From: an uncultured Candidatus Saccharibacteria bacterium
GTDB taxonomy: Bacteria; Patescibacteriota; Dojkabacteria; SC72
NCBI GenBank assembly: GCA_964610125.1
Contig: CAZSUV010000001.1
Coordinates: 253,240 to 317,239, forward strand
DNA: 64,000 nucleotides
Reading direction: 5' to 3'
The notes beneath the pieces were generated by a model. The model made no database searches and was not told the DNA's origin. It saw only the letters and a list, made by a program, of their open reading frames with translations. The number at the start of each line of letters is the position of its first letter. Positions within the stretch are counted from its first letter, which is position 1. Of this stretch, positions 10,819 to 60,978 are shown piece after piece. Made by a program: the position numbers and the translations under genes.

Positions 10819-11910
10819 ATGCTTCGAATAGACATAAATCAGAAAAAAGAAGAATCAATTGAAAAAGCCGTATCCATACTTAAAGATGGAGGTCTTTTAA
10901 TATTTCCTTGCGAAACCTGCTATGGTCTTGGATGTGATGCTACTAATCCCAAAGCTTTAGCAAAATTACTTGATTACAAAAAATTTAGGGGTTCAAAACC
11001 AATATCCATCGCGGTATCTGGAAGAGAGATGGCAGAGAAGTATGTGGAGATAAATGAAATGGCAGATAATCTTTACAAGAACTACCTACCTGGACCTATC
11101 ACAGTAATATCTATGAGTAAAGGTGAACTTGTTCCTCCTGTGGTATCAATTCAAGGTGCTGTGGGTGTTCGATATCCTGACTATGATTACCTATTGGAAG
11201 TGATCAAAGCCTTTGGCAAGCCAATAACCTCCACATCAGCAAATGTATCCTACAAATCCGCACCATACAATATTGATCAATTAATGAAGGATTTGCCCCA
11301 AAAAAGTAAAAATTTAGTAGATCTCATACTTGATGCTGGTACTCTTCCACAGAATCCCCCTTCAACGGTACTTGATACTACGATGAATCAACTTTCTGTC
11401 TTGAGACAAGGTAAGTTGGAATTTGAAAATGCTCTAATTAAAAACAAAAAGATTGAAGAAAAGAAAACAAAATTAACAGAAGAAACCATACGGTTAGGAA
11501 AAGAATTTGCAGACAAATATCTAAAAAATGATATTCCTATTGTTGTCGCACTTAGTGGGGAACTTGGAGCAGGAAAGACACAATTTACAAAAGGAATTGC
11601 TCAAAGCTTGAATATTACAGAGATAGTGAACTCTCCTACATATACAATTATTAATGAATATCCATATTTTAGAGATGGAAAGAAAAAGGTATTAGCCCAT
11701 ATGGATACATGGAGATTGGAGAATAATGAATTGGAGAAATCTGGGTTAATACAACATTTAGAACAAGGAAATATTGTAGTTATAGAGTGGGCTGACAAGT
11801 TCTACCAAGAAATAGCTGCGTTGTGTGATAACATGAATATACCTATGTACAAGGTAGTTATTAAATATATTTCATTGGAAGAAAGGAACATTGAAATATA
11901 TGAAGCATAA
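10819..11910 (+). CDS. t6A biosynthesis fusion protein: TsaC/YrdC (threonylcarbamoyl-AMP synthase) N-terminus + TsaE (YjeE P-loop) C-terminus
   Basis: 363 aa. N-terminal YrdC-like segment (GGLLIFPCETCYGLGCDATNP...PGPITVI). C-terminal TsaE Walker A LSGELGAGKTQFTKGIAQSL. Confidence 0.7.
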   Translation: MLRIDINQKKEESIEKAVSILKDGGLLIFPCETCYGLGCDATNPKALAKLLDYKKFRGSKPISIAVSGREMAEKYVEINEMADNLYKNYLPGPITVISMSKGELVPPVVSIQGAVGVRYPDYDYLLEVIKAFGKPITSTSANVSYKSAPYNIDQLMKDLPQKSKNLVDLILDAGTLPQNPPSTVLDTTMNQLSVLRQGKLEFENALIKNKKIEEKKTKLTEETIRLGKEFADKYLKNDIPIVVALSGELGAGKTQFTKGIAQSLNITEIVNSPTYTIINEYPYFRDGKKKVLAHMDTWRLENNELEKSGLIQHLEQGNIVVIEWADKFYQEIAALCDNMNIPMYKVVIKYISLEERNIEIYEA

Positions 11911-12976
11911 CGAACCAATAATAATTGCATTTGATACTAGTTGTGATGATACATCTGTAGCTATCCTTAAGGGCCGTAAGGTACTCTCTAGCGTAGTTTC
12001 GTCTCAAGTAGAAATACATGCACAATGGGGTGGTGTAGTTCCAGATATTGCCAGAAGAGAGCATGAGAAGAATATCCCTATGGTATATGAAGAAGCTTTG
12101 AAGAAAGCCAAGATGAAGATCGAAGATGTTGACTATGTGGCTGCTACATTTGGACCAGGACTAGCAATTGATTTAGAAGTAGGATTGGCCTTCGCAAAGG
12201 AATTGGCTATTAAATACAACAAACCATTTGTACCTGTAAATCATATGGAAGGGCATATGTTCTCTGGGTTATCTTTAAATACTAAGGGCAATGGTTTGGT
12301 CCCAGGCGAAATGAGTGAAGTTGAAAAACTTTTTCCTGCCTTAGCATTGTTAATTTCGGGTAAGCATACAGAATTAGTTCTTGTTGAAAAAATTGGGAGT
12401 TACAAAAAACTTGGAGAAACATTGGATGATGCAGTGGGTGAGGCTTTTGACAAGGTTGGTAGAATGCTTAATTTCGGATATCCTGGTGGTCCAGTGGTTT
12501 GTGAGTTTGCGAAGAAGGGTACTTCTGGAAATATTACATTTACAATACCTATGAAGAATAGTGGGGATATGAATTTTAGTTATTCTGGGCTTAAGACTGC
12601 GGCTTTGTACAAGACTAAGGAATTAAGAGAAGCTGATAAGCAAGATAAGGAATGGGTATATGATTTTTGTAGGGGTTTCTTAGATACCATTATTGATTCT
12701 CTGAATCTTAAGCTTAAAATGGCGGTAGAATCTAACCCCGGGGTTAAGACATTGTTTGTTGGTGGTGGGGTGTTTAATAGTGAAGAGATTGTTAGAAAGA
12801 TTGGGAATACTGCAAGATCATATGGGCTTAACTATATTTATTCGGATCAGGAGTATCGTGGGGATAATGCTGGGATGATAGGGGTTAGTGCATATTTTAA
12901 TATACTAAATGGTAAGTATATATCTGATGTAGATGAGATTAGGAAAGTGGATAGAGATCCTAGACTATCTCTTTAA
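11891..12976 (+). CDS. tsaD: tRNA N6-adenosine threonylcarbamoyltransferase TsaD
   Basis: 361 aa; IIAFDTSCDDTSVAIL N-terminus; VNHMEGHM metal-binding motif; overlaps the upstream gene by 20 nt. Confidence 0.85.
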   Translation: MKYMKHNEPIIIAFDTSCDDTSVAILKGRKVLSSVVSSQVEIHAQWGGVVPDIARREHEKNIPMVYEEALKKAKMKIEDVDYVAATFGPGLAIDLEVGLAFAKELAIKYNKPFVPVNHMEGHMFSGLSLNTKGNGLVPGEMSEVEKLFPALALLISGKHTELVLVEKIGSYKKLGETLDDAVGEAFDKVGRMLNFGYPGGPVVCEFAKKGTSGNITFTIPMKNSGDMNFSYSGLKTAALYKTKELREADKQDKEWVYDFCRGFLDTIIDSLNLKLKMAVESNPGVKTLFVGGGVFNSEEIVRKIGNTARSYGLNYIYSDQEYRGDNAGMIGVSAYFNILNGKYISDVDEIRKVDRDPRLSL

Positions 12977-13545
12977 TTAGTTGCTTTTAAGTCTTCTATT
13001 ATTTTTTCAAATGCAAGATTGCGATTTGCCGAGACATCATATGTCTTAATACCATATTCCTTAAACTTTTGATCAAAGTACTTATTATATTCAATGAAGT
13101 AATTTACATCTCCTCTTAATTCATCATCATTTATATAGTATGTCCAATCATCTTCAGTATCATTGTCCTTTATATTTTTAAAAAGTTCTTCGCTTGTAAT
13201 ATTGTTATACGTGAGTCCGATAATTTCATATTTCTCTTTATCTATATTGGGTAATATCCCCTCAAAATCAACATAAACTCCTTCAATAACATAGGGATTA
13301 TCATTATAAAAAACAGGTCCTTCGGATAACTCCTTTAAATATTTAGTTAGAAATGGTGCAAACCTAGTAGCGGCTTTTTTATCATTATAGTCATGTTTTA
13401 TTCCTAATTCTGGAAAAGCATCCTCTAAACCACAGATAATATTGTCCAAGTTTATAATACTGTAACCAAGTTCTTTATGAAGTAACTGCGATAGCGTAGT
13501 TTTTCCAGTTCTTGAAGCTCCAATTATTAAAATATTTTTCCTCAT
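12973..13545 (-). CDS. P-loop NTPase / predicted kinase (AAA-like)
   Basis: 190 aa; Walker A IIGASRTGKTT. Confidence 0.5.
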   Translation of the reverse strand: MRKNILIIGASRTGKTTLSQLLHKELGYSIINLDNIICGLEDAFPELGIKHDYNDKKAATRFAPFLTKYLKELSEGPVFYNDNPYVIEGVYVDFEGILPNIDKEKYEIIGLTYNNITSEELFKNIKDNDTEDDWTYYINDDELRGDVNYFIEYNKYFDQKFKEYGIKTYDVSANRNLAFEKIIEDLKATN

Positions 13546-47507: not shown

Positions 47508-48119
47508 GTGTCAATGAAGGGAAAAGTTTGTATAATGGAATCTATGAAATCTATTGTAGCAATCATAGCCATTGTTATAGCGATAGCAGGATATATTCCA
47601 TACATTAGGGATTGCATAAAGGGCACGACTAAACCTCATGTCATTAGTTGGTTTACATGGGCGTTAGTGTCATTCATTGCATTTGGAATTCAATTATTAA
47701 ACAAAGGTGGTTCAGGATCATATATCAATCTCGTAATGGGAATTTTATGTACTATTGTTTTCTTCTTCGGACTAAAGAATGGCACTAAGAATATTACAAA
47801 GACAGATTGGATTGCTTTTGGTTTAGCAATTGTTGCTATTATCCTATGGTTAATTGTTAAGCAACCTTTGTTATCTATTATTCTTGTTGTATTTATTGAT
47901 TTTATGTCATTCCTTCCTACATTATTAAAGGGTTGGAAGAAACCTTGGTCTGAAACGATCGTTACATTTGGTGTAAGTGCTATAAAGAATGGACTATCCA
48001 TATATGCTTTGAGCACATATTCCGTAGTAAATATATTATTCCCGGCATACAGCTTCATAGCTTGTACATACTTTGTAATAGTGTTGATATTAAGAAGGAG
48101 AGTGATAAAGAAGGAGTAG
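47508..48119 (+). CDS. Integral membrane protein, hypothetical
   Basis: 203 aa, about 6 TM helices. Confidence 0.45.
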   Translation: MSMKGKVCIMESMKSIVAIIAIVIAIAGYIPYIRDCIKGTTKPHVISWFTWALVSFIAFGIQLLNKGGSGSYINLVMGILCTIVFFFGLKNGTKNITKTDWIAFGLAIVAIILWLIVKQPLLSIILVVFIDFMSFLPTLLKGWKKPWSETIVTFGVSAIKNGLSIYALSTYSVVNILFPAYSFIACTYFVIVLILRRRVIKKE

Positions 48120-48165
48120 AAAGTTTGATTTCCAAACAAATCCCATAGGCGTATAATAATATATT

Positions 48166-49032
48166 ATGAGCAATTGGGCAGATTACAAAGTAGGTATGTC
48201 TTCTGAAGAGCTTGAAACATCAGGAATAGCCTTTGAAAGAAAACCTTGGGATATTGAAGGAGAACAATTCATAGGAATGTTATTTTCTGATCTCGTCCCA
48301 ATCCTATTAAAAGAATCTAGATTTTCCTATAATCGCTTCACTCCTCCCGATTGGATAGGTTCATATCAAGGAGGAATAATAGAAGCAACATTGAAATATT
48401 ATGGAATTAATCCTCACGAAGAAACATCTGAAGAACGAAAGACAGGTGAAGGGAAGGAACAGCTATACTGGCCAGTTGCGGTATTACCTGATGGAAGTAT
48501 GCGTGTCCCAGTAGGTACAATTCAAGACCTCTTCGCGGGAGGAGAAGATTCAGCCGTAGCATTAACTTCACGAGTTGTGTTAAATAATTTAAGTAGACCT
48601 GGGGAATATGGTGGAATAGCTCATTTCCCAATGTTAGATATTGTACATAGCCCTACAGAAGAAAATATAAAGTATTTGATAACAGCGGTAAGAGAGAAAT
48701 GTGGGTTAGAAAATTTCTTTGTAATACAATCTTCAGATAATGGAATGATGATTATTGGGGCGGAGCTATTTGATGAAGAGAATTTCGTTGCTTTACTGAT
48801 GGATTCCTTATTAATAAATCATGTAGAAACCAAGGGTATAGATGGTTTCTGGGTAGATGATAGATGGAATGCCCGTAGTACACAAAATGGTGTGGTAGAA
48901 ACTGGTGATAGATTAAATAGATGGAGATTCAATGGTGTATTAAGAATGGTTGCTAGTCTGCCAAATAAACCATGCAGACCATTTGTAAAAGCGGCTTTTT
49001 TAAATGGAGTTGTTTACGGGGTGTCCTGTTAA
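48166..49032 (+). CDS. Hypothetical protein
   Basis: 288 aa; no motif. Confidence 0.4.
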   Translation: MSNWADYKVGMSSEELETSGIAFERKPWDIEGEQFIGMLFSDLVPILLKESRFSYNRFTPPDWIGSYQGGIIEATLKYYGINPHEETSEERKTGEGKEQLYWPVAVLPDGSMRVPVGTIQDLFAGGEDSAVALTSRVVLNNLSRPGEYGGIAHFPMLDIVHSPTEENIKYLITAVREKCGLENFFVIQSSDNGMMIIGAELFDEENFVALLMDSLLINHVETKGIDGFWVDDRWNARSTQNGVVETGDRLNRWRFNGVLRMVASLPNKPCRPFVKAAFLNGVVYGVSC

Positions 49033-49086
49033 TTACCTTCTTTCGAAGAAAAATATCGGGACACCCCTCACTCTAAAAATCAAATA

Positions 49087-50274
49087 CTATTCTGTACTAA
49101 GCTTGGGCTTAAAAGCACAAGCTATTAAGGATATTAATCCTAGTACAGCAAATGCTACAAATACTCCTTTGCTATCTACTAGCATTCCTACAAAAGGATT
49201 GAATATTGTAAGCATTAAACGCTTAATCATACTTACAAATGAAAGTACTGTTGCTCTTTGCTCATCCGCAATTTCTTCGTTAATCTCTTTAGACAAGAGG
49301 GTTGGAATTTGTAGTCCAAGTCCACCTGCAAAGATCAGTACGAATAGAATCCCAATGGTATTATGCAGTAACGCTCCCATCAGAAATCCTGTGGCTACGA
49401 GACTGGCTATTAGTATGAATACTAGCTTTGGATTGAGCTTTCTCATTAGGCGAGCAAGAACGAACATAGAGAATACCTCTCCTCCCAAAAGTATGATTCT
49501 ATATACCCCGAATAGACTTTCAGGTACGGAGAGAACTCTCAGCCCTTCTTGGTAAAGCCATATAACAAAGTAGCTTGTTGAACAAAGAAGACTGATATAT
49601 ATGGTTAGTTTTCTTAGATTGATACTACCCCTTAGTATCTTTAAACCTTCCTTTACTGTTTTTAGGTATTCTGGCTTCAAACCATTTCCTTTGGTATCTG
49701 TAGAGGGTATGAAGAATCCATATATTATTAATGCAATGACACTTGGTATGGCACCTAATCTAAATATCTCTTGTATTGTAAATCTGTTACTTACAAAGAT
49801 ATATATGAATGATGCGAGTACCATTCCAACGATATGCATTGTACTGCTAACTAGTGATATGGTTCTAAACCTTTTCTCTATACCGTATCTCTTGGATATA
49901 TCATATACCCAGGCCTCTCTAGCTCCAGATACAAATGCTAAGCCTAGCGCCAGAATGAACTCTGATATGAGGAATAGGTAGATATTTGGATAGAGGGAGT
50001 AGGTTATTGTTCCAATAAAATAGAGGATGTATCCGATGATTACAGAACGTTTTTTGCCATGTACATCTCCGAATACTCCTGTTGGAACCTCAAGTACAAA
50101 TACCCAGAATGTAAACCAACTTTGTATTGTTTGTGTTTGTGTCTGAGATAGGCCTCCCCAATCTCTAAAGAACACTAGTAGTATGGATCCGATTAATTCC
50201 ATTCCAAGGATTAGATCTGCTACCCAGAATAGGTATATTTCCTTGGGCCAACTAAAGATATTTTTTGTTCTCAT
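49087..50274 (-). CDS. MFS transporter
   Basis: 395 aa, 12 TM helices; GVFGDVHGKKRS loop 2-3 motif. Confidence 0.75.
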   Translation of the reverse strand: MRTKNIFSWPKEIYLFWVADLILGMELIGSILLVFFRDWGGLSQTQTQTIQSWFTFWVFVLEVPTGVFGDVHGKKRSVIIGYILYFIGTITYSLYPNIYLFLISEFILALGLAFVSGAREAWVYDISKRYGIEKRFRTISLVSSTMHIVGMVLASFIYIFVSNRFTIQEIFRLGAIPSVIALIIYGFFIPSTDTKGNGLKPEYLKTVKEGLKILRGSINLRKLTIYISLLCSTSYFVIWLYQEGLRVLSVPESLFGVYRIILLGGEVFSMFVLARLMRKLNPKLVFILIASLVATGFLMGALLHNTIGILFVLIFAGGLGLQIPTLLSKEINEEIADEQRATVLSFVSMIKRLMLTIFNPFVGMLVDSKGVFVAFAVLGLISLIACAFKPKLSTE

Positions 50275-50385
50275 TTTTCTCCTTTTGAAATATGAATGAA
50301 TATATTTGATTTTTAAGAGCTATTACCTCTCAATATTTAAATTTGAGGGTGTACAGCTTCCAAATACAATTAGCTTTTAAAGGGA

Positions 50386-50413
50386 AAATAAAAAACCTCC
50401 AGTATTTGGAGGC
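50386..50413 (-). terminator. Intrinsic terminator (minus strand)
   Basis: CCTCCA-gtatt-TGGAGG hairpin followed on the minus strand by TTTTTTATTTT. Confidence 0.4.
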
Positions 50414-50439
50414 TATTCACTGACAATTTTGATTAGGAA

Positions 50440-50550
50440 TTATGCAATAGAAAGGTCTCCAATATAGTGTGTTGCGTGTAGAACGTAACCACACATAGAT
50501 GGCTTGGTTGGAGTGAACTTTTCAATTTGTCTATCGTTTATGTTTTGCAT
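50440..50550 (-). CDS. Candidate small ORF (36 aa)
   Basis: MQNINDRQIEKFTPTKPSMCGYVLHATHYIGDLSIA*. Upstream TTGCAT-16nt-TATATAAT promoter-like sequence; terminator about 25 nt downstream. Confidence 0.2.
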   Translation of the reverse strand: MQNINDRQIEKFTPTKPSMCGYVLHATHYIGDLSIA

Positions 50551-50757
50551 AATGGGGAGATTATATACTCATTTAATATGGGAATGCAAGAAAACAATTA
50601 AACCTTTATTCCTCTTTTCTTTATTTCTTCTAAAATCTTTCCTTCTAACTTTCTACATTGACAGTTTCTAGCATGTTCTACATGCCATTGTACTCTTTGA
50701 TCTAAGGTAGGATTCTTAGGCATTCTATTAGCTAAATGCCATTCTTTATTTATCATA

Positions 50758-50985
50758 TTATTTGTATTTTAATAATCTAAATAATCCTTTCTCTGGTTTG
50801 TACACTGTATCTGGATATTTCTCTATTAACTTCCATACACATCCATTAATTGTTTTAGGATGGAAGGATGGATATGAGGTTTGAATCATGGTTAATAGTT
50901 CTGACCAATGTATTCCTTCTGGATTTTCTTCTAATATCTCAAATATTTTTGTATATATTTGTCCTGTGATTGTTGGTTCCTTCAT
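50758..50985 (-). CDS. Small winged-helix (Mrr_N-like) DNA-binding protein adjacent to the R-M genes
   Basis: Track ORF 50758..51291 overlaps the methyltransferase start. The first ATG giving a non-overlapping 75-aa product (MKEPTITGQIYTKIFEILEENPEGIHWSELL...KGLFRLLKYK) is at 50985. Confidence 0.45.
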   Translation of the reverse strand: MKEPTITGQIYTKIFEILEENPEGIHWSELLTMIQTSYPSFHPKTINGCVWKLIEKYPDTVYKPEKGLFRLLKYK

Positions 50986-51202
50986 ATATACAATTATAGA
51001 AGAAAGGAAAAATATGGCAATGGGAATAAAAAAACTCCCCTTACAGGGCATACTTAGGAACCTTGTTTTAAATGTTGAATTGAATTGGCGGGGTATAAAC
51101 AAGATGCTTAATTTTGCTGTATAACCTTTCAATATATTATACACAAGGTCTGATATTTGTGAAATTGGATGAAAAAACTTCTTAAATAGGATAGTATAAA
51201 GT

Positions 51203-52270
51203 ATGGTCAAAAACTTAGAGGTTATAAAATTCATTGATCTTTTTGCAGGGATTGGGGGGATTAGAATCGCTTTTGAAAATGTTGGAGCCAAATGTATTTA
51301 TTCTTCCGAGATAGAACCTAATTGTCGTCAAACATACTTTGAGAATTTTGGAGAAGAACCGCATGGTGACATTACGCAAATAGATCCAAAGAATATTCCA
51401 GATCATAACATTCTTTGTGGGGGATTTCCCTGTCAGCCTTTCTCTATTAGCGGAAAACAAAAAGGTTTCCTTGATACTAGGGGGACTTTGTTTTTTAATA
51501 TTATGGAAATAGTAAAAGCTAAAAAGCCAGAGATTGTATTTTTAGAAAATGTTAAGAACTTATCTAAACACGATAGTGGAAATACTTTGAAAGTTATAAT
51601 AAAAGCCCTTGATGATGAAGGATATTCTGTAAAGGTTAAGGTTTTAAACGCAAAAGATTATGGAGTTCCTCAAAATCGTGAAAGAACAATAATAGTAGCC
51701 TCCAGAATTGGAGAATTTGATTTCTCAAAAGTGGAACTAGCCCCAAGGAAACCTGTTATAAAAGATATACTTAGCCAAAGTGAGAAATTTGAATATCTTA
51801 AACCCGAAGAGTATACAATTCTGGATAAAAAATATTGGAAAACACAAATAAGTGGGCTGATTTTCTGTGGATATAGAAATAAAAAAATTAGAACAAATGG
51901 TGTTCGTCCAAATACCGAACATTTATCTAGAGTTCATAAACAACCTAATAGAATATACTATTATGAAGGTACGCACCCAACAATTCCATCACAAGAATTA
52001 TCAGGAAGGTTTTGGATCTATGATGGAAAGAGAGTAAGAAAACTCACTATCAATGAATGCTTCAGATTGATGGGATTCCCTGAAGAATTTAAGAAAATAA
52101 GCTCTACACCTCATTTATATAAACAAATTGGTAATTCTGTTGCGATACCAATGATACAAGCGGTATCATCACAAATAATGTTACAATACTTCCCATATTT
52201 ATATGAGAAAGAAAAAATAAATCTATTTAAAAATCCACAACTATGTATGATGAATATGCTAGAGAATTAG
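51203..52270 (+). CDS. DNA (cytosine-5)-methyltransferase
   Basis: 355 aa; motif I DLFAGIGG; motif IV GGFPCQPFS; motif VI ENVKNL. Confidence 0.92.
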   Translation: MVKNLEVIKFIDLFAGIGGIRIAFENVGAKCIYSSEIEPNCRQTYFENFGEEPHGDITQIDPKNIPDHNILCGGFPCQPFSISGKQKGFLDTRGTLFFNIMEIVKAKKPEIVFLENVKNLSKHDSGNTLKVIIKALDDEGYSVKVKVLNAKDYGVPQNRERTIIVASRIGEFDFSKVELAPRKPVIKDILSQSEKFEYLKPEEYTILDKKYWKTQISGLIFCGYRNKKIRTNGVRPNTEHLSRVHKQPNRIYYYEGTHPTIPSQELSGRFWIYDGKRVRKLTINECFRLMGFPEEFKKISSTPHLYKQIGNSVAIPMIQAVSSQIMLQYFPYLYEKEKINLFKNPQLCMMNMLEN

Positions 52271-53364
52271 GAAGAATTTATGAACAATCATTAAAGAAAG
52301 TAAAAGAAAATGGTTTTTCAGCGATTCCAAACGGAATCTTAGAGCCAACTATGAAAGGGAATATAGAAAAGCTAATAGATAGGGTTGATAATTTTAAAGC
52401 AGTTACAAGTGTTACTATAACAAGTACTCTTAAGAAAATTATTACTCCTGATCAAGATATAAGATTGCATAAAGTAGAATTTGAGAATGGTTATTCAGGG
52501 AGATCATTAGATACGGCTGTGGTTACACCATTTTTGAAGGATAATAATTTGAAATGTATGGCTGAAAGTGGTTGGTTGACTCGTTCATTGGAACAGACCC
52601 ATCCTTTTAGTTTAGATTTCCCTGGTGCTATAAGAGATCAAGAGATCAAGGATGCTTTTCTACAGATTATCAATGATATAGAAACAAAGGGAGCAAATGC
52701 TGAAGCTATTTTGGACTATCTATTGCAGCTTTTAATAATTAAAAGAGAATCGGAAAAAATTGAAATTAGAAAGATTGAAAATGCAGATATATACATATCT
52801 GAAATTATTGAAAAATTAACTAAACATTTCAAAGAAAGCAATTCTTCTGGGACAGCTAGATTGCCGGTATTGGCTGTTTATTCAATTTATGAATGCTTAA
52901 TGAATCAAATAGCTAGATTTCAAGGGAAGGTTCTTAAACCCTTGGAAAGTCATACCTCTGCCGACCTTCGTTCAAACAGTATTGGGGATATTCAGGTTGA
53001 CAATGGAGAGGGAACTCCATTTGAAGGAGTTGAGGTTAAGTATGGGAAGCCAATTACACACTCTATGTTGGAAGATGCATATGGCAAATTTGGATCCCTT
53101 CCTGTAAAAAGATATTACTTGCTGAGTACGGCAGAACCAGAAGAAGATGAGAAAAAACTTATAGAGGATATGATAAGGAAAATAAAGGAAGAACATGGTT
53201 GCCAGGTTATTGTTAATGGTTTACTGCCAACTATTAAGTATTATCTAAGACTTTTGGAGGAACCAACACCATTTTTAAATAAATATACTGAGAATGTACT
53301 AAATGATGAAGTGGTAAAGTTGGAACATAAGCAATTGTGGAAAACAATATTAGAGAACTCTTAA
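52243..53364 (+). CDS. Putative Type II restriction endonuclease (partner of the C5-methyltransferase)
   Basis: 373 aa; overlaps the methyltransferase stop by 28 nt; PD-(D/E)xK-like arrangement D..(11)..EGVEVK. Confidence 0.45.
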   Translation: MYDEYARELGRIYEQSLKKVKENGFSAIPNGILEPTMKGNIEKLIDRVDNFKAVTSVTITSTLKKIITPDQDIRLHKVEFENGYSGRSLDTAVVTPFLKDNNLKCMAESGWLTRSLEQTHPFSLDFPGAIRDQEIKDAFLQIINDIETKGANAEAILDYLLQLLIIKRESEKIEIRKIENADIYISEIIEKLTKHFKESNSSGTARLPVLAVYSIYECLMNQIARFQGKVLKPLESHTSADLRSNSIGDIQVDNGEGTPFEGVEVKYGKPITHSMLEDAYGKFGSLPVKRYYLLSTAEPEEDEKKLIEDMIRKIKEEHGCQVIVNGLLPTIKYYLRLLEEPTPFLNKYTENVLNDEVVKLEHKQLWKTILENS

Positions 53365-53427
53365 AGTATTTAAGAAATGTCGTCTTGACGCAAAAAAATG
53401 GGATATATTATTTAAAAATATAGATTC

Positions 53428-55272
53428 TTAATCGCAGGATATTTTTGTCCATGAAGTATTTAATGTGAATGAAATCAAATCCTTAATATTCTTTTTTGTT
53501 TCAGCTTCAAGATTATTAAAACTTAGTTTGGATGTTAAACATAAAAACTTGTAAGCCAATGCTTTTTTGTTATATTTTTTTAATATCACAAAAGAGGAGT
53601 TTGACATTTTGTTGTATTTAATAGAATCATCATCCTTCAAATCCTCACCCAGTACATATTTCTGAAAATCTTCTTTTGAAAAGATGTCCTCTATCCCAGA
53701 ATCAGAATTCTTTTTATAAGGAGGAATCGTATACATTGTCTTTGATTCTATTCCATAATCCTCTTCTAGTAATTTACGATAGTTAGTCTTTGAATTTGTA
53801 TCTAAAATAACTTTGAAATTAAGACCTTGAGAAATAACAAAAGGAACAATAGTTAACATTGAGCTATCACCCCGAGCAGGAAGAATATTTGTTATGTTAG
53901 TATTTTTTGTTAGTTTTGCCATCGCTCTAATGTAATATAAATCAGAAAGGCCTTCAGTAATAACGACCTTATCATTGATTTTAAGCTGATTTATATACTT
54001 TAAGCCTATCGCTTCCGCAAGTGGTTGTAGTGAGAGATATTCGCCTTTTTTCGTGATTTCGTTTCTAAAATCGTTATAAACAAGTAATTCGTTGTTGTGA
54101 TCTTTCGTCATTCTTCTAATATTTTCTAAAAGATCATAATCAATCATATATTCTGAATGAGTTGACATAATTACAGTGTTCTTGAGAGATAATTTCTTGA
54201 GATAGTTTAATAAATCAAATTGTGCTGTAGCGTGAAAGCCATTATTCGGTTCGTCAAAAAGTAATATTCCATTATTTATTTCATTCACCTTGGCATAAAG
54301 ATAATAGTGGAATAGAAACTTTGTGTTATCAGATAAATGAAAGAAAAAGGAAGACTTGTTTTGTGTTCTTGTTGTGATTTGCAACCCTTGGTTTCGTCTA
54401 ACGGTAATTTCTAAAAATTTAAACTCAGACTCATTTAGTAATTTCTTTAGTTTATCGTTAAATTCGTTTTCCAAAGTCTCATGTAGATCTTGGTCTGAAC
54501 TTCCTAAATATTTTTTAAGATTTTCAATGCCAAGAAATTCTATGAATGTTCTTATGAGTTCTGGTTGATTATCAAAATCATTGATATTCTCTAGGATAAT
54601 TTGGTTTGGTAAAGAGGCGGTGAAATCAAATTCCTTATCAAAAAAATCTATTTGAGGAAATTGCCTAAATAACAAATTCTCAATTGTCAACGCCGAAAAA
54701 TTTAAAGGGAATGTTCTATTTTCAATTCTAATGAACCTCTTGTCTTGTTGTATATAATTAAACAAATGGTTAATTATCTCAGTTAATGAACTTATTCTCT
54801 CTAAGTATTTGTCATTATTTCCAAATATGTAATCACCATTTTTCAGTTTGATAACAGGAATCTCTTGTCCAAAACCTTTAATAAATTCTTTATATATTGA
54901 CTCTAAAGATAAGAAAAATTCTTGTAAATTAGGATTAGAGTCTATAATGGCTTGGTCAATCCCTATGGGTAAAAATAATTCTTCTTTAATAAATCTTATC
55001 TGTGTTTTTACATCAATATCATTCTTTTTAATCTGGAATACTGCTTCTAATCTTGAATCTTCGCCAGTATCTTTGTAATTTTGAAATGATGGATTGTTCT
55101 CAGGGATTAAATCATATTCAAAATTGCGGATTGCCTTTAATAGGGAGGATTTTCCAGAACTATTTCTTCCAATTATATAATATAATTCTTCCTTATTTTT
55201 TGTTTCAAACTTAATTCCCCCAGAGTCTTTGAAACCAAAACAGTTGTAGATTCGGAATGACTTTAATCTCAT
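53428..55272 (-). CDS. OLD-family ATP-dependent endonuclease (ABC-type ATPase + C-terminal TOPRIM)
   Basis: 614 aa; Walker A GRNSSGKSS; Walker B/D-loop ILLFDEPNNGFHATAQ; TOPRIM VVITEGLSD. Confidence 0.75.
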   Translation of the reverse strand: MRLKSFRIYNCFGFKDSGGIKFETKNKEELYYIIGRNSSGKSSLLKAIRNFEYDLIPENNPSFQNYKDTGEDSRLEAVFQIKKNDIDVKTQIRFIKEELFLPIGIDQAIIDSNPNLQEFFLSLESIYKEFIKGFGQEIPVIKLKNGDYIFGNNDKYLERISSLTEIINHLFNYIQQDKRFIRIENRTFPLNFSALTIENLLFRQFPQIDFFDKEFDFTASLPNQIILENINDFDNQPELIRTFIEFLGIENLKKYLGSSDQDLHETLENEFNDKLKKLLNESEFKFLEITVRRNQGLQITTRTQNKSSFFFHLSDNTKFLFHYYLYAKVNEINNGILLFDEPNNGFHATAQFDLLNYLKKLSLKNTVIMSTHSEYMIDYDLLENIRRMTKDHNNELLVYNDFRNEITKKGEYLSLQPLAEAIGLKYINQLKINDKVVITEGLSDLYYIRAMAKLTKNTNITNILPARGDSSMLTIVPFVISQGLNFKVILDTNSKTNYRKLLEEDYGIESKTMYTIPPYKKNSDSGIEDIFSKEDFQKYVLGEDLKDDDSIKYNKMSNSSFVILKKYNKKALAYKFLCLTSKLSFNNLEAETKKNIKDLISFTLNTSWTKISCD

Positions 55273-55374
55273 ATTGTTGAATTGGAAATAATATATTATT
55301 TACCTTCCTATAGCATGATTATATCACTTGAACCTTTGCTTTATATACATTTGATTATATAATGCAATATGTTA

Positions 55375-55538
55375 CCTAAACCTATTTATTTAGGCATGGT
55401 GATGAAAATCAAATCCAGGTCAGTGCGTTAGGCGGTCTTCCGTCTTGCAATCACTGACCTGGTTACTAGGGGAAACTCTAGTAGGTGAAGTAGCAATACT
55501 CACCTGTGAGCGGGAGACCACTTGTCTCAAAGCTCACA
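55375..55538. other. Highly structured ~165-nt element: five consecutive hairpins (candidate ncRNA or 5'-UTR element)
   Basis: Hairpins: CCTAAA/TTTAGG; CCAGGTCAGTG...CACTGACCTGG (11 bp, inner GGCGG-tctt-CCGTC); TACTAG/CTAGTA; GGTGA/TCACC; TGTGAGC...GCTCACA (inner GAGAC/GTCTC). Confidence 0.3.
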
Positions 55539-55573
55539 AACAATTAAATATATAACTTGGTCAGAGGATATAT

Positions 55574-56617
55574 ATGAAAAAGAAAACGAGTGTGAAGAAA
55601 AGTCGCCTATTTCTAAGATATTTAGCTTCTCCGCTTTATTTAATGATCCCTTCTACCATAAGGATCATCATCCTCTTTCTAGGAATAGAAGCCTACGATC
55701 TAATCGCAAGAATAGATTTCAAGGTTATTGTAATCCTGATATTGCTTGGTGTTGTTTCAATTCCATTAACATTTTACATACTGTACGGAATTGGTGCGGG
55801 GTTATTTTATTTAGGGAAAAAGATAATGCAGTTTTCTCCAAATAAGATAGTATTTTGGATTGTATTTTCTCTTTGTGGAATTAGCTTCTTAGATATGTTT
55901 ATTAAAACTAATGCTAATTTAGATCCTGAAACTGCTGTAGTTCCACTAGTTGTAGATATAATAGTTACAATTCTAATTATGACTGTATATGGAATAGGTG
56001 GATATGTCCGAAGCAAAGAGGAGGAAGAGATGGCTATGCAAACAGCTTCAAAACTTGCAGATGAATCAGTGGATAGTGGACTTCCAATTGATATGGGACA
56101 AATTGCCATAGGAGAGGACAAGGAGATTCAAGAAACACTTGAAAACATTGAAAGATTAAAGGAAAGTTCACACTATCCTTTTGTACACCATATTCTTAGA
56201 GACTTAGCATTAAAAGACCCAGGTGTTTTTTCTAAAATGGTTGTTGAAGCACATAAATCTTCTAAAGATAATGCATTTATAGAGCTATGGGAAAGGGTAG
56301 GTGGGTCAGCAGATGAATTAGAAAAGGATTCTCTTGTACCAAGATTTTTACAGCTAAGAAATAAAGAAGTGTTGATTGCAATGAAGATGCCCAAAGTAAA
56401 GAATCAAAACGAAGCCTCATTTATAGGTGTGAACTTACAAACCAAAAGAACACTAAGTTTTTATACACTTGAGCTTACAAAGAAAAAGAAATATGCATTA
56501 TGTAAATGGGAATATCCTTCATTGTTTAGTGATGCTGAGCATTCTTATTTGAAAGACGGACTTGAATCAAATTTAGAATCTTTCCATTGGGCTATAGCGG
56601 ATCTAGAGAATAATTAG
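55574..56617 (+). CDS. Membrane protein (4 TM) with ~200-aa cytoplasmic domain, hypothetical
   Basis: 347 aa; ATG at 55574 preferred over the overlapping track ORF 55522. Confidence 0.5.
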   Translation: MKKKTSVKKSRLFLRYLASPLYLMIPSTIRIIILFLGIEAYDLIARIDFKVIVILILLGVVSIPLTFYILYGIGAGLFYLGKKIMQFSPNKIVFWIVFSLCGISFLDMFIKTNANLDPETAVVPLVVDIIVTILIMTVYGIGGYVRSKEEEEMAMQTASKLADESVDSGLPIDMGQIAIGEDKEIQETLENIERLKESSHYPFVHHILRDLALKDPGVFSKMVVEAHKSSKDNAFIELWERVGGSADELEKDSLVPRFLQLRNKEVLIAMKMPKVKNQNEASFIGVNLQTKRTLSFYTLELTKKKKYALCKWEYPSLFSDAEHSYLKDGLESNLESFHWAIADLENN

Positions 56618-56652
56618 AGTATAATAAGAAAAGTTCTCGGGAGAGAATATAT

Positions 56653-57342
56653 ATGTTTAAAACAGATAAACTATACTTAAAGAAGAACTGGGACATTCCT
56701 ATTGAATATCACCCCACTAATACCAAAAGAATGATTATTTGCATTCCTGGGGCAGATGGGAGCGTCAGGGGGTATAAGAATAAGTACCTGAACCTAGGCA
56801 ATTATATCCAAGAAAAGAACATAGCCTCTTTCGTTAGAGTTCCAAATGATAGACCTCAAGAATTCATTGATTCTGCTGAACACTTTATTCAATATTGCTT
56901 AGATCATTCTGAAGAAATATGTGGAGAAAAGGTCTGCCCTGAGATATGGTTAATGGGATTCTCTGCGGGTGGGGCATCTATTTTATTAACTGCATGGGAA
57001 TACCCATGGGTAACAAAAATATTAGCAATCAACCCATTCTTAGGAAATGATATATTTAGAGAATTAGAGACATATTTACCCTTGTATATGGGAAAAGTAT
57101 TTGTTGTCATAGGTGAAGACGACAAAATCTGTGATCCCAATTTTACAAAGAAATATATTGAAGATAATGCTATCAAAAAGAAAGAACCTCAGATACATAT
57201 ACTTCCTAATTGTGATCATCAACTAAAAGGGGAAACAAATTCTAGAATATTATCCCAATTACCTGAATATTATTTTCTTGATAAGTATAAAACTGAACCA
57301 TTCCCAGATGGGAACAAAGGTATAAATTTATTGGATTCATAA
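56653..57342 (+). CDS. Alpha/beta-hydrolase fold esterase/lipase-like protein
   Basis: 229 aa; nucleophile elbow GFSAGG; His near the C-terminus (CDHQ). Confidence 0.6.
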   Translation: MFKTDKLYLKKNWDIPIEYHPTNTKRMIICIPGADGSVRGYKNKYLNLGNYIQEKNIASFVRVPNDRPQEFIDSAEHFIQYCLDHSEEICGEKVCPEIWLMGFSAGGASILLTAWEYPWVTKILAINPFLGNDIFRELETYLPLYMGKVFVVIGEDDKICDPNFTKKYIEDNAIKKKEPQIHILPNCDHQLKGETNSRILSQLPEYYFLDKYKTEPFPDGNKGINLLDS

Positions 57343-57343
57343 A

Positions 57344-57742
57344 GTGAAGATCTACTTAGACATTGATGGTGTAATGGTAACTTCTCATCATAAACAAATG
57401 CCATATCTTAAAGAGTTCTTAGACTTGGTATTTACAATATCAAATGGAGAGGTATATTGGTTAACTACTCACTGCCATAATGGAGATAATACAAGAGCTT
57501 TAGACTATCTCCATCTTCAAGTAGACCCAGAGATATATGAAATGTTAAAAAAGCTAAAAGCTACTAAATGGGAAACTCTTAAAACAGAGGGTATTGATTT
57601 GAACGAAGAATTTCTTTGGTTTGATGATAATATATTTGAAGTTGAATACAAAGAATTAGAGAAGGTAGGAAAAGAACATTGTTTGATTAAGGTAAAGGAT
57701 AATTTAGAAGAATTAGTTGAGCTATTAAAGGAGGAAATATGA
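57344..57742 (+). CDS. Mini HAD-superfamily phosphatase (capless, PNKP/NT5C-like)
   Basis: 132 aa with a GTG start; motif I YLDIDGVMV; motif II WLTTH; motif IV WFDDN. Confidence 0.5.
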   Translation: MKIYLDIDGVMVTSHHKQMPYLKEFLDLVFTISNGEVYWLTTHCHNGDNTRALDYLHLQVDPEIYEMLKKLKATKWETLKTEGIDLNEEFLWFDDNIFEVEYKELEKVGKEHCLIKVKDNLEELVELLKEEI

Positions 57743-58269
57743 GAGGTGCAATCATTGGAGATATTGTAGGTTCTACAAGAGAATTTGTTGAAAGAGTAAC
57801 GACAAAGGAATTTGATCTATTTCCCTATGGAAGTACATTCACAGATGATACAGTATTAACAATCTCTGTATATGATGCTTTACATAACCATATCCCATAT
57901 GATGAGGCTTTCATGAAGTGGATAGAGAAGTATCCAAACCGTGGCTACGGAGGTATGTTCTTTCAATGGATTCTTAGTAAAGAAAAGAAGCCATATGGCA
58001 GTAAGGGAAACGGAGCTGCAATGAGGGTATCTGCAGTTGGTTGGCTATTTGATACAGAAAAAGATGTTCTAGATGAAGCTAAGAAATCAGCAGAAATAAC
58101 GCATGATACTGAAGAAGGGATATTCTCAGCTCAGGCAGTAGCTATAGCAATCTATATGGGAAGGAATAAAAGAAGTAAAAAGGAAATAAAGGAATATATA
58201 GAAAAGAATTTCAAATATGATTTAAGTAGGACTATGGATGAAGTAAGGAATGAATATGAGAATTACTAG
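57739..58269 (+). CDS. ADP-ribosylglycohydrolase (ARH/DraG)-family protein, N-terminal half only
   Basis: 176 aa; GAIIGDIVGS, TDDT and GNGAAMR are ARH motifs; the second metal-site half is absent. Confidence 0.5.
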   Translation: MRGAIIGDIVGSTREFVERVTTKEFDLFPYGSTFTDDTVLTISVYDALHNHIPYDEAFMKWIEKYPNRGYGGMFFQWILSKEKKPYGSKGNGAAMRVSAVGWLFDTEKDVLDEAKKSAEITHDTEEGIFSAQAVAIAIYMGRNKRSKKEIKEYIEKNFKYDLSRTMDEVRNEYENY

Positions 58270-58567
58270 GGAACAGTACCAAGAATTATCAGAAAAGTAT
58301 TCTAAAAAACAGAAAGAATTTGAAAGGAAACTGGCAAATCTACTAGATACAAATAAAGACTACTATGACACAGCTTGTGACATATTAGATTTAGCTTCAA
58401 GGGCATATGAACTGTATTTAGGTTCTGAACTTAATGAAAAAAGGGAGATTTTGAATTTACTATTTCAGAACCTGTATTTGAAAGATGAAAAGCTAGTCTA
58501 CAAGCTGAATAAACCGTTTGATAGTATACTCGTCTGCAATGATCGTCTTGAATGGCTCCCCGAGTAG
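58250..58567 (+). CDS. Small helical hypothetical protein
   Basis: 105 aa; overlaps the previous gene by 20 nt; its last 14 nt overlap tRNA-Asn. Confidence 0.35.
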   Translation: MNMRITREQYQELSEKYSKKQKEFERKLANLLDTNKDYYDTACDILDLASRAYELYLGSELNEKREILNLLFQNLYLKDEKLVYKLNKPFDSILVCNDRLEWLPE

Positions 58568-58629
58568 GATTCGAACCTACAACCGAACGGTTAACAGCCG
58601 TTTGCTCTACCATTGAGCTATCGAGGATT
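58554..58629 (-). tRNA. tRNA-Asn (GTT), CCA encoded
   Basis: Acceptor TCCTCGA/TCGGGGA; D-arm GCTC/GAGC; anticodon stem AACGG/CCGTT with loop CTGTTAA; T-arm GTAGG-TTCGAAT-CCTAC; discriminator G followed by CCA. Confidence 0.85.
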
Positions 58630-58674
58630 AACAACAACAGCTATTATATCCACTCAAACCCTATTCTGCAACAT

Positions 58675-59376
58675 CTATTTCTTTCTACTATTAGGATGTC
58701 TTGTACCTAATTGCATACGAATATATGCTCCAGAACCATGGGATGCACTACTAGGAACATCATAAGGGATTGGGGTAATAACAATAGCAGCACCATTAGA
58801 GAGTATTACTTTATTATCAACACTATTGCTATTTTCTGTTTGATTCTTAATTCTTGCTATTTCATTGTTAATATCATCTAAGAGCTGGAATACCTTAGTA
58901 TCTTTGTTTTTTGTAAGTCTTAAATCCCATATATTAAACCAATCCGACTTAGATTCTAATGTATACAAATATCCACCTATTGATGGGAATTGTGCTGATA
59001 TTCCATTATTCTCCGTAGGAAGGTTTCTTTGAGTTGCAAAAAATCTTGTTCTTGTGCTATCCAATGGTAAATCTTCATTACATTCATCCTTTTCTAAGTA
59101 CCAATTTACAGAATCAATTGTTACTTGATCAAAACATTTCCCATATTCTCGCATTAAAGCCTCTGTCCCTGACATATATTTATCTGTTACTGCATTCATC
59201 TGTTCCGTAATTTCTGGCCTTTGCCATATTGGTACGAATCTATGCTTAAATGGTTCTTCTACATAAGGTTCTTCGCTTGAAGGAACATTAATAATTGGTC
59301 CAGTGGAGGTTTCGGTTCTAGTAATAGATTCTTCTTGCTTAGTTGGCTCTTGAGGATCTAGTTGTGAGTCTGGCAT
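58675..59376 (-). CDS. Hypothetical protein
   Basis: 233 aa. Confidence 0.4.
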   Translation of the reverse strand: MPDSQLDPQEPTKQEESITRTETSTGPIINVPSSEEPYVEEPFKHRFVPIWQRPEITEQMNAVTDKYMSGTEALMREYGKCFDQVTIDSVNWYLEKDECNEDLPLDSTRTRFFATQRNLPTENNGISAQFPSIGGYLYTLESKSDWFNIWDLRLTKNKDTKVFQLLDDINNEIARIKNQTENSNSVDNKVILSNGAAIVITPIPYDVPSSASHGSGAYIRMQLGTRHPNSRKK

Positions 59377-59462
59377 AAATATATATAACCCTAAAATTAT
59401 ATTTGCTCTCTTTGTATTACCAATATATCATTAAATATATATAACTTGTAAGGGTAAAGAAT

Positions 59463-60065
59463 ATGGACAAAAAGATCATACAAGTATCATTTGTAGGAAT
59501 GGATCCTACTGAGGCATTAAAGAAATATGCTCTAGAGAAGATATTAAAGAAGGAAAACCTCTTAGAAGAAGCAACAAAAGTAGAGGTGGTATTAAAGGAA
59601 CAAACATACAGTAGAGGTATAGAAAATGATTTTAGAGTAAATATTGATGTATATCTTCCCAAAGCATTGGTAAGAGTAGAGGAAAATGGTCCTGAGATGT
59701 ATGCAAATATAGATAAAGCAACAGATGTATTGTTTAGAAGGTTGAAACGATACAACGATCAAAAAGCACACTGGGAAGGACAAGAATCATGGAGAGTACT
59801 AGAAGCCGAGGTAGCTCAACAATCACTCTCTAATGGGCCTGAGATCGATTTAGAAGACTATACCGACTATGTACCTAAGATAGCTAAGAGGAAGATAGCA
59901 GATGATATGTCTCCACTTGAAGAGGGAGAGGCTATAGAGCGGATGGAACTAATGGGATATGATCAATACCTATTTAGAAGTAAAAAGACAAACAAAATAT
60001 CAATGATATATAGAAGAAAGCATGGAGGATATGGTTTGGTGGAACCACCTGATGATCTAGTATAA
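59463..60065 (+). CDS. hpf: Ribosome hibernation promoting factor (long HPF/RaiA)
   Basis: 200 aa; N-terminal S30AE fold pattern plus C-terminal dimerisation extension. Confidence 0.8.
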   Translation: MDKKIIQVSFVGMDPTEALKKYALEKILKKENLLEEATKVEVVLKEQTYSRGIENDFRVNIDVYLPKALVRVEENGPEMYANIDKATDVLFRRLKRYNDQKAHWEGQESWRVLEAEVAQQSLSNGPEIDLEDYTDYVPKIAKRKIADDMSPLEEGEAIERMELMGYDQYLFRSKKTNKISMIYRRKHGGYGLVEPPDDLV

Positions 60066-60076
60066 TATGGATTAAC

Positions 60077-60108
60077 AAAAAAGGAGGCTTTAGGCCTCCT
60101 TTTCTTTT
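60077..60108 (+). terminator. Bidirectional intrinsic terminator between hpf and the convergent gene
   Basis: AAGGAGGC-ttta-GCCTCCTT hairpin flanked by A-run and T-run. Confidence 0.55.
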
Positions 60109-60123
60109 ACATATTCAATATAT

Positions 60124-60978
60124 TTATTTAGCTGTTAAGTTCTTAAATATATTTGCTGTAGTACTAAACAAGCCATACTTTGGTTTGCTTGTAGAGTTAT
60201 CCTGTACTTTGTAATCAGCTTTCTTTCCAGACAACCATGTAGCCTTATTATTGGATACCTGTTGCTGAACATAGAATGTTGTTGTTTGAGCTTTGTATGT
60301 GTCAAAGTCTAACTTTGCACCTGTTTCTAATGCAGCTGTTTCTGTTGGGAACATCTGAGCACTATATTGATTGAAGAAACTCTTCAGATCATCATCGGTA
60401 TATGTGATTGTAGGTGTAAGTAACTTTGTTGTTAAGATATCTAATTGAATTTCTTTCTTAAGCTCGACATCTGTTAAGTTGTTTGCCTTCAATGCTGCTT
60501 CATATTGTTCTTTTCCACCAAGACTTGTAATGATCTGATCTACTTGTGATTGAATCTCTTCATCAGATGCAGTTACCTTTGCTTTCTTAGCTTCCAATTT
60601 GATTATTTCATTTTCAATCAATTGTGTTGCTGCTGTTTGTCCATATGCCTGTTGTAGAAGCTTGTTCCACTCAGACTTAGAGATTCTTGTGCCATCAACA
60701 ATAGCTACACTGTAGTCATTGTTAAGGTATTGAACACCAAGATCAATTAATGCAAATGAACCAACGACTATCAATACAAGTCCGACAATCTTTAAAACTG
60801 TTTTTGAAGTTTTAGATTCCTTCATCTGAGCAAACATTTTTTTGAAATCTGGCATCTTTACCTTGATCTTAATATTTGAAAGATTTGGTTTCTTTACTAC
60901 AAATTTGACCTTTGCAGGTGCTATTGGGGCTTTTGTTTGAGGCTTTTTAGTAGAACTCTTTTTCTTATCTTTAGACAT
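60124..60978 (-). CDS. SurA-N-domain/PpiC-like periplasmic chaperone-like protein
   Basis: 284 aa; Lys-rich N-terminus, TM anchor, SurA_N-like helical region. Confidence 0.45.
   Translation of the reverse strand: MSKDKKKSSTKKPQTKAPIAPAKVKFVVKKPNLSNIKIKVKMPDFKKMFAQMKESKTSKTVLKIVGLVLIVVGSFALIDLGVQYLNNDYSVAIVDGTRISKSEWNKLLQQAYGQTAATQLIENEIIKLEAKKAKVTASDEEIQSQVDQIITSLGGKEQYEAALKANNLTDVELKKEIQLDILTTKLLTPTITYTDDDLKSFFNQYSAQMFPTETAALETGAKLDFDTYKAQTTTFYVQQQVSNNKATWLSGKKADYKVQDNSTSKPKYGLFSTTANIFKNLTAK

Follow-up and report, generated by a model that had tools for sequence, protein, structure and literature searches.

Two probably independent defence modules as cargo of a decayed tRNA-Asn element in a Candidatus Saccharibacteria genome

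The 64,000-nt stretch of an uncultured Candidatus Saccharibacteria bacterium considered here (the window; contig CAZSUV010000001.1, positions 253,240 to 317,239, with all coordinates below given as window positions unless another contig is named) carries a cytosine methylase gene and a gene for a 373-aa nuclease in tandem, a convergent gene for a 614-aa OLD-like protein and, to their left, a short winged-helix gene. With a probability of roughly 0.8, the methylase–nuclease (M/R) pair and the OLD-like gene represent two independent, single-purpose defence modules that were carried as cargo by a decayed integrative element of ~7.5 kb at a tRNA-Asn gene (51035-58561). The sequence-only reading had placed all four open reading frames (ORFs) where the ORF list has them, and had grouped them as one defence cluster. 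The grouping does not hold, since a homologue of the OLD-like or winged-helix protein is found at 0 of 80 M/R loci and both are missing from a relative whose nuclease is 99% identical. The features on which the argument turns are the following.

51035-58561: decayed integrative element, ~7.5 kb
50758-50985, minus strand: winged-helix protein, 75 aa, left of the left attachment site (attL) and outside the element
51203-52270, plus strand: C5 methylase, 355 aa, first gene of the M/R pair
52243-53364, plus strand: predicted PD-(D/E)xK Type IIP restriction endonuclease of the SacI/EcoT38I lineage, 373 aa, putative catalytic residues D249, E264 and K266, second gene of the M/R pair
53428-55272, minus strand: OLD-like protein, 614 aa

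Linkage of the genes across genomes

Genomic context was compared at 80 loci holding a member of the nuclease family (L001-L080), from Patescibacteria, Bacteroidota, Clostridia, Planctomycetota, Nitrospirota and DPANN archaea. A methylase gene lies directly upstream of the nuclease gene, on the same strand, at 78 of them: 64 loci carry a full-length orthologue of the window methylase (53-70% identity), 14 have in the same position a methylase with an SPPY motif (PF01555, N6_N4_Mtase), and the remaining two are cut by contig ends. Homologues of the OLD-like protein, of the winged-helix protein and of the 52-aa protein encoded beside the latter are absent from all 80. On sequence grounds, the two linked genes are identified as a Type IIP restriction-modification (R-M) pair. 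On Staphylococcus epidermidis plasmid NZ_CP093209.1 (L096, 1891-4011) they are joined in a single 706-aa ORF, in which an HhaI-like methylase is fused to a nuclease 43% identical to that of the window; two IS257 copies flank the fusion, blaZ is adjacent, and the record labels the product only 'DNA cytosine methyltransferase'. Such fusions are probably the reason why family members bear the JGI label 'DNA (cytosine-5)-methyltransferase 1'. On a Chitinophagales contig (L011, 6948-11456), two M/R pairs stand in tandem, and the second methylase copy matches only residues 140-328.

The closest comparison is provided by the JGI contig of P0001, the relative with the 99%-identical nuclease. This contig has the same M/R pair with the same methylase/nuclease overlap, a matching 34-aa junction ORF at the equal distance of 79 nt upstream of the methylase and a 103-aa ORF at the position of the recombinase remnant described below, and its distal flanks are those of the window, with a major facilitator superfamily transporter to one side and, to the other, a SurA-like gene and a ribosome hibernation factor. 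In place of the OLD gene and its neighbours, the stretch from nuclease to remnant holds genes for a 152-aa, a SocA_Panacea and an 80-aa protein, and upstream of the junction different genes stand where the window has the winged-helix gene. In L082 (nuclease 63% identical), an unrelated 641-aa gene (11125-13050, minus strand) follows the nuclease in that position; it has no Pfam match and was rejected as an OLD homologue on comparison. The slot convergent with the nuclease gene is therefore variable, relatives filling it with different genes, and the winged-helix and 52-aa genes lie in a further variable stretch outside the element.

The winged-helix domain assigned earlier to the 75-aa protein agrees with PF23159 (WH_Rok), whose weak matches in two relatives, one of them barely past the Pfam cut-off, are the only basis for the call. 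The protein has 252 homologues at E<=1e-3, either stand-alone or forming the N-terminal domain of longer proteins, and in other relatives the domain is fused to DUF4145 or to a PDDEXK_4 nuclease. Its features are not those of a C-protein-type controller, being a Rok-like winged helix rather than an Xre-type helix-turn-helix and lacking homologues at the 80 M/R loci. Moreover, its gene falls beyond the boundary of the element, which makes a role in controlling the M/R pair unlikely.

A single defence system in which the winged-helix protein would act as controller of the methylase and nuclease, and the OLD-like protein as a second effector coupled to restriction, is highly improbable. The physical adjacency of the four genes and the fusion of the winged-helix domain to nucleases and DUF4145 elsewhere speak for it, as do the closest OLD homologues, which also lie by R-M genes. 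Specifically, a 63%-identical homologue (L087) stands directly after tRNA-Asn in the equivalent chromosomal neighbourhood of a relative, beside a Type I-like system comprising a methylase/specificity protein and a helicase-type restriction subunit, and a 54%-identical one (L089, 3104-9534) overlaps by 4 nt the stop codon of a 966-aa MmeI-like Type IIG gene. Such R-M neighbours occur in 3 of 8 OLD contexts, once with a stop/start overlap, so that some functional link is possible, and this weighs against full independence of the modules. On the other side stand the 0/80 count at the M/R loci, the absence of both proteins from the contig with the 99%-identical nuclease, the more distant OLD homologues, which stand alone or have unrelated neighbours (VapBC, an HNH gene or an integrase), the position of the winged-helix gene outside the att-delimited element, and the convergence of the OLD gene on the nuclease gene, which excludes one operon. 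In L089, another AAA_21 protein, of 541 aa, comes after the OLD homologue, on an element with two resolvase genes.

It is likewise improbable that this OLD subfamily, with its degenerate DxD and invariant SGIED motifs, functions as an effector tied to restriction and not as a free-standing class 1 OLD. The three closest members each lie by a different kind of R-M system, namely Type IIP in the window, Type I-like in L087 and MmeI-like Type IIG in L089; if the proposal were true, the OLD protein could act on the DNA ends or nicks that restriction leaves behind, or protect against anti-restriction factors. Independence of the M/R pair and the OLD-like gene as separate cargo is the reading followed below.

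The element at tRNA-Asn

The boundaries of the element and its remaining parts are as follows.

51035-51040, plus strand: crossover core CTCCCC of attL, placed by three-way alignment with L081
51035-51124, plus strand: displaced 3' tail of a serine recombinase gene, corresponding to about residues 495-507 of the L081 protein and then divergent to the stop
55354-55575: divergent intergenic region from the OLD gene to the 347-aa ORF, conserved in a related element
55574-58269, plus strand: other element genes, for proteins of 347, 229, 132 and 176 aa
58250-58567, plus strand: truncated large serine recombinase gene, about residues 393-496 of 534, reading into the 3' end of tRNA-Asn
58553-58627, minus strand: tRNA-Asn (GTT), the integration target, located by ARAGORN
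58556-58561, plus strand: crossover core CTCCCC of the right attachment site (attR), in the 3' strand of the tRNA-Asn acceptor stem

The boundaries emerge from comparison with contig L081, which encodes a 534-aa recombinase (632-2236) with Resolvase, Recombinase and Zn_ribbon_recom domains and also holds a 78%-identical methylase/nuclease pair. The 105-aa ORF at 58250-58567 is 88% identical over 104 aa to residues 393-496 of this recombinase (E=2e-53). At the DNA level, L081 1817-2119 corresponds to window 58259-58561 with 90% identity over 303 nt, and L081 2114-2142 corresponds to window 51035-51063 with 93% identity (blastn), where the displaced recombinase tail also aligns to the L081 protein with 85% identity over 13 aa (tblastn). 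When the contiguous L081 sequence is aligned with the two window junctions, CTCCCC is the sole segment shared at the switch, producing an attP/attR/attL pattern. The last 9 nt of tRNA-Asn, CCA included, are supplied by the element; the reconstructed attB (...GGGGAG/TTTTTTTATTCCC) lacks an encoded CCA, as does the tRNA-Asn of a relative. In L082 (17283-19002), an intact 547-aa recombinase likewise reads into a tRNA gene, that of tRNA-Asp. By this arrangement, the element would have entered the 3' end of tRNA-Asn via a large serine recombinase.

The att core is only 6 bp long, and its significance derives wholly from the split homology to L081, a point that weighs against the boundaries proposed here. 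A direct-repeat search for an att site returned chance-level repeats only. A short core without a long direct repeat fits a serine recombinase and explains why both that search and the sequence-only reading missed the att site. The latter had reported neither integrase nor att repeat, which is overturned by the recombinase remnant at 58250-58567 and the junctions at 51035 and 58561. Its suspicion of an island ending at tRNA-Asn was right in spirit, now that the junctions have been found, although the tRNA occupies 58553-58627 and not 58554-58629.

With large-serine-recombinase elements and prophages, the element shares the recombinase domains (seen in L081) and the short common core without a long att repeat. 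It differs from them in its target, the 3' end of tRNA-Asn in the window and of tRNA-Asp in L082, in the truncation of the window recombinase, and in the placement of attP inside the recombinase's own 3' coding end, through which integration swaps the C-terminal tail of the protein. Targeting of tRNA genes is the usual habit of tyrosine integrases, not of serine integrases.

Beyond the defence genes, the intergenic region at 55354-55575 is 74% identical to L082 13109-13320, which lies between the convergent cargo gene and the backbone genes of L082. The genes that follow in the window encode a 347-aa protein that lacks a family match and is predicted to contain membrane segments, a 229-aa alpha/beta-hydrolase-like protein (weak Hydrolase_4 match), a 132-aa protein that resembles the HAD domain of 'Swiss Army Knife' RNA repair proteins (weak HAD_SAK_2 match), and a C-terminally truncated ADP-ribosylglycohydrolase of 176 aa (ADP_ribosyl_GH, E=3e-19, profile positions 4-209 of 287; phrog_6572, E=8e-35, profile positions 12-204 of 325). 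This truncation and the loss of recombinase codons ~1-392 indicate that the element is presumably immobile.

A comparison of GC content and k-mers of the block with its flanks, proposed earlier as a check, does reveal a deviation, albeit a modest one. GC is 0.321 within the element and 0.342 elsewhere, windows centred on the nuclease and OLD genes give z = -2.4 for GC and z = +2.5 for tetranucleotide distance, and the lowest value, 0.289, belongs to the OLD gene.

The restriction-modification pair and its candidate site

The 373-aa protein belongs to a very strongly conserved family, with >2,400 matches at E<=1e-3. Across 35 homologues, G248-D249, E261, E264 and K266 are invariant, and the series D249...E261...E264-V-K266 reproduces the D...EVK motif. 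Scans with Pfam, NCBIfam, PADLOC and PHROGs are blank or insignificant, and single-sequence and profile searches against the sequences of the PDB return no match; with nothing usable from the libraries, the family link is drawn only from structure and BLAST. Pairwise BLASTP aligns the protein with an Aeromonas caviae SacI-family enzyme at E=1e-15 over 359 of 373 residues, and tblastn against plasmids finds genes labelled 'restriction endonuclease, SacI family' at E = 1e-9 to 2e-6. An AlphaFold2 model, built with 35 homologues in the alignment, has a mean predicted local distance difference test (pLDDT) score of 90.3, and Foldseek matches it over its full length to the EcoT38I–DNA complex (E=1e-10, template modelling scores 0.63/0.67), with no protein other than EcoT38I under E=1e-3.

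From these comparisons and the model, the protein is predicted to be a restriction endonuclease of the SacI/EcoT38I lineage with a PD-(D/E)xK fold. The PD-(D/E)xK nuclease suspected from the sequence alone thus gains the invariant D249, E264 and K266, the SacI-family BLASTP match and the EcoT38I structural match, and the relatives recovered are restriction enzymes (EcoT38I/SacI), not a non-nuclease family. Weighing against the assignment, PF09566 (RE_SacI) does not match the window protein even at E<=10 and so stays below its gathering score; relatives score right at the threshold (P0018, 20.1 bits against a cut-off of 19.3; P0005, 17.3 bits). The phage collection contains no homologue of the nuclease. 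The PluTI family (GGCGC^C) was considered on account of a GD dipeptide and a G-G-x-S-G-R-like motif in the nuclease family, and was ruled out as its conserved D211, H220, T222 and EGGRTSRG differ from those of that family (PMC2875022).

The likeness to EcoT38I and SacI extends to the PD-(D/E)xK active site, to detectable sequence homology with annotated SacI-family enzymes, and to the order of the genes, with the methylase first and the nuclease second on one strand. The candidate site of the window pair, GDGCHC, is a degenerate superset of the sites cut by EcoT38I (GRGCY^C) and SacI (GAGCT^C). The window nuclease differs in being only 13-16% identical to EcoT38I and ~23% identical to SacI-family proteins, in being missed by the Pfam model, and in its apparently broader specificity. 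In addition, the Aeromonas enzyme is paired with a gene annotated 'DNA adenine methylase', whereas the partner in the window is an HhaI-like 5-methylcytosine (m5C) methylase.

The methylase matches PF00145 almost end to end (E=1.3e-95, profile positions 1-322 of 324), as well as TIGR00675 (E=1.1e-93) and the PADLOC model MTase_II (E=2.5e-111), and the FAGIGG, GFPCQ, ENV, QNRER and GNSV motifs can be read in its translation. Its best solved relative is M.HhaI (E=1.5e-75, full length, 257 bits), with the next best at 140 bits. All catalytic motifs of M.HhaI are present, and its target-recognition domain aligns in part through the retained Q..RIY, while the remainder of that domain diverges. The C5 cytosine methyltransferase called by the sequence-only reading is accordingly retained, and the protein is predicted to be a complete Dcm-type enzyme, the modification half of a Type II system. 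The methylase and nuclease genes overlap at 52243-52270, exactly the 28 nt given before with the stop codon counted; to call them co-translated on that basis is too strong, as the overlap points to co-transcription and possibly to translational coupling. In the proposed mechanism, the methylase would modify the recognition site with m5C in both strands, and unmethylated sites on incoming DNA would be cut by a homodimeric nuclease of the SacI/EcoT38I type.

The recognition site is quite probably GDGCHC, cut by analogy as GDGCH^C to leave 4-nt 3' overhangs like those of SacI, EcoT38I and Bsp1286I. Hexamer counts, observed against an order-3 Markov expectation and summed over the 80 carrier loci, place the six GDGCHC words at depletion ranks 1, 2, 5, 9, 15 and 18 of 2,076 hexamers (observed/expected 0.27-0.57), three of the six being non-palindromic. 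The four GNGCNC words outside GDGCHC show no comparable depletion (0.80-1.17), and fewer sites than expected are found at 73 of 80 loci for GDGCHC and at 43 of 80 for these excluded words. The depletion appears separately in Bacteroidota-like and Clostridia-like loci, the words in the latter reaching 0.06-0.41. A first small control of seven OLD-homologue loci, one SacI-family plasmid among them, was itself depleted in GDGCHC (0.59); this ambiguous set was replaced by 80 loci anchored on the housekeeping gene glmS (966 kb, mostly gut metagenomes), whose fetched DNA contains no homologue of the methylase or nuclease. Carrier loci with an m5C partner compare with this GlmS control as follows, in observed/expected ratios.

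GDGCHC pooled: carriers 0.40, GlmS control 0.77
GAGCAC: carriers 0.48 (range given 0.41-0.57), GlmS control 1.09
GGGCAC: carriers 0.46, GlmS control 0.75
GAGCCC: carriers 0.30, GlmS control 0.68
Three palindromic GDGCHC words: carriers 0.20-0.47, GlmS control 0.56-0.62

The depletion of the palindromic words in the control is typical of palindromes generally, and carriers are two to four times more depleted than this background, specifically at GDGCHC. Strong under-representation in carriers (L001-L080) and control (L098-L177) alike is seen for GGCGCC and for hexamers that contain GGWCC (such as GGACCC, CGGACC and GGTCCA), which marks both as background avoidance. Hexamer avoidance can suggest a specificity only alongside a matched control, and it was the control that removed GGCGCC and GGWCC as false leads.

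The resemblance of the methylase to M.HhaI raises a different candidate, an HhaI-type system for GCGC or for a hexamer containing it (GGCGCC, RGCGCY), which is unlikely. M.HhaI leads far ahead among solved matches (257 against 140 bits), Gln237 and Arg240 of its Q..RIY align, and GGCGCC is depleted in carriers (0.40). However, GCGC itself is not avoided in carriers (0.95), GGCGCC is depleted to the same degree in the GlmS control (0.49) and was rejected as the site on that account, words of the form GCGCNC are not depleted, and the retained Arg does not discriminate between GCGC and GDGCHC, since they have the 5' G-C* context in common. Moreover, the nuclease matches no Pfam family and resembles no solved restriction endonuclease other than EcoT38I at E<1e-3; a HhaI/HinP1I-type GCGC system was rejected because the nuclease is unrelated to known GCGC enzymes in the matches found and GCGC stands at 0.95.

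For GDGCHC, which remains the favoured site, the specificity is a statistical inference, and several observations count against it together with the depleted seven-locus control. The window's own genome has 23 GDGCHC sites against 29.8 expected, a weak depletion; the subset with SPPY-methylase partners stands at background level (0.79); and the genomes behind the control loci may carry the system elsewhere. Within the window, no GDGCHC site lies in 48017-60356, and the 9-kb stretch 50000-59000 has no GCGC, GDGCHC or GGWCC site, but with its low GC only 1.8-4.1 GDGCHC sites are expected in the element, making their absence only weakly significant.

GDGCHC is the site of Bsp1286I and SduI. The window pair resembles these enzymes (GDGCH^C) by site alone, as suggested here by avoidance, and the cut position is assumed. 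A literature search did not find a sequence-level description of R.SduI or R.Bsp1286I. The m5C set by multispecific phage methylases protects against Bsp1286I (PMC3459991), and in a DPANN archaeon, Dcm-like enzymes are reported to methylate GDG(m5C)HC (PMC11001535).

The OLD-family protein and remaining features

In the 614-aa protein, Pfam recognises AAA_21 and AAA_15, with OLD-like_TOPRIM below threshold and the Toprim model scoring 16.9 bits against a threshold of 23.2, and PADLOC ranks AbiLi first (1e-17) and Old second (4e-16, residues 330-493), followed by weaker AriA, GajA and PtuA matches. Walker A (GRNSSGKS, K41), Walker B (D340-E341) and H372 do not vary among 36 homologues, and the same holds for E440, D491, G526, E528 and D529 of the C-terminal domain. 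There, position 444 is Asp or Glu, S525 and E528-D529 are invariant or nearly so in the OLD homologues, and the 'SGIED' motif is invariant. In the OLD protein of Thermus scotoductus (Ts OLD), metal A is liganded by E377, D431 and D433, and metal B by D381, S478 and E480 (PMC7049728). Matched by motif order and not by superposition, E440, D444, D491, S525 and E528 of the window protein pair with Ts OLD E377, D381, D431, S478 and E480, leaving D433 as the only ligand without a counterpart. Its position, the second Asp of the DxD motif, is occupied by Asn493 and is variable among the 36 homologues; as this residue is not conserved, nuclease activity is not assured, which weighs against a functional OLD nuclease. 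The sequence-only reading had tied its OLD call to intact Toprim catalytic residues, and this holds for the other ligands and fails for the second DxD aspartate.

No UvrD-like helicase, retron or AriB partner is found among the window neighbours in PADLOC or Pfam, and no partner gene is common to the eight OLD homologue contexts. Since no helicase or AriB-type partner recurs, the protein is best described as a single-gene, class-1-like OLD, which agrees with the earlier view of an OLD-family ATPase/Toprim protein acting alone. By its domains and context, it is identified as a solitary OLD-family protein that would combine an ATP-binding cassette (ABC) ATPase with a Toprim domain and form independent cargo. 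By extension from class 1 OLD enzymes, the ABC ATPase head would control a Toprim nuclease that attacks DNA during infection by nicking or degrading it, and the protein would need neither the helicase of Gabija nor the AriB partner of PARIS.

The class 1 OLD proteins (P2 Old, Thermus scotoductus OLD, Vibrio cholerae OLD and E. coli YbjD) share with it the Walker A/B and H-loop ATPase, the C-terminal Toprim domain, the single-gene arrangement with no UvrD-like helicase downstream, and the conserved metal-B and first metal-A ligands. The window protein departs from them in the missing second DxD aspartate and the invariant 'SGIED', in a sequence similarity to Ts OLD that is confined to the ATPase, and in the PADLOC preference for AbiLi over Old. 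It is possible, though doubtful, that the incomplete Toprim metal-A site leaves the protein without nuclease activity, in which case it would work by the ATPase only or serve as a sensor or toxin. The substitution of the second DxD Asp by a non-conserved Asn and the sub-threshold Toprim score favour this possibility, and a report on E. coli YbjD describes anti-phage phenotypes that need the ATPase and not the Toprim domain (PMC13261556). Conversely, the invariance or near-invariance of E440, D444 (or Glu), D491, S525 and E528-D529 argues for selection on a metal site (compare PMC7049728).

Outside the element, the winged-helix ORF (50758-50985) starts at an internal ATG; its mechanical extension to a TTG at 51291 (177 aa), which runs over the start of the methylase gene, is probably spurious. 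Directly downstream lies one further small gene.

50598-50756, minus strand: 52-aa small ORF, outside the island

Its product (MINKEWHLANRMPKNPTLDQRVQWHVEHARNCQCRK...) has an H..H...C.C pattern and no match in Pfam, PADLOC, NCBIfam or PHROGs. The ATG lies 2 nt from the winged-helix stop codon, and the arrangement suggests a two-gene operon. Promoter and terminator scans of the locus gave no excess over shuffled expectation. The nearest relatives of several window genes come from Patescibacteria-type metagenome bins.

Collectively, what looked like a defence cluster amounts to a slot for cargo on a decayed element of a serine recombinase that targets tRNA genes, and nothing in it is conceptually new: the R-M pair and the OLD gene are ordinary representatives of known kinds, standing side by side as interchangeable cargo. 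For the nuclease itself, a bacterial and archaeal family of >2,400 members, mostly annotated as 'hypothetical' or mislabelled as cytosine methyltransferase, is assigned to the predicted SacI/EcoT38I lineage and now has a testable candidate site, GDGCHC.

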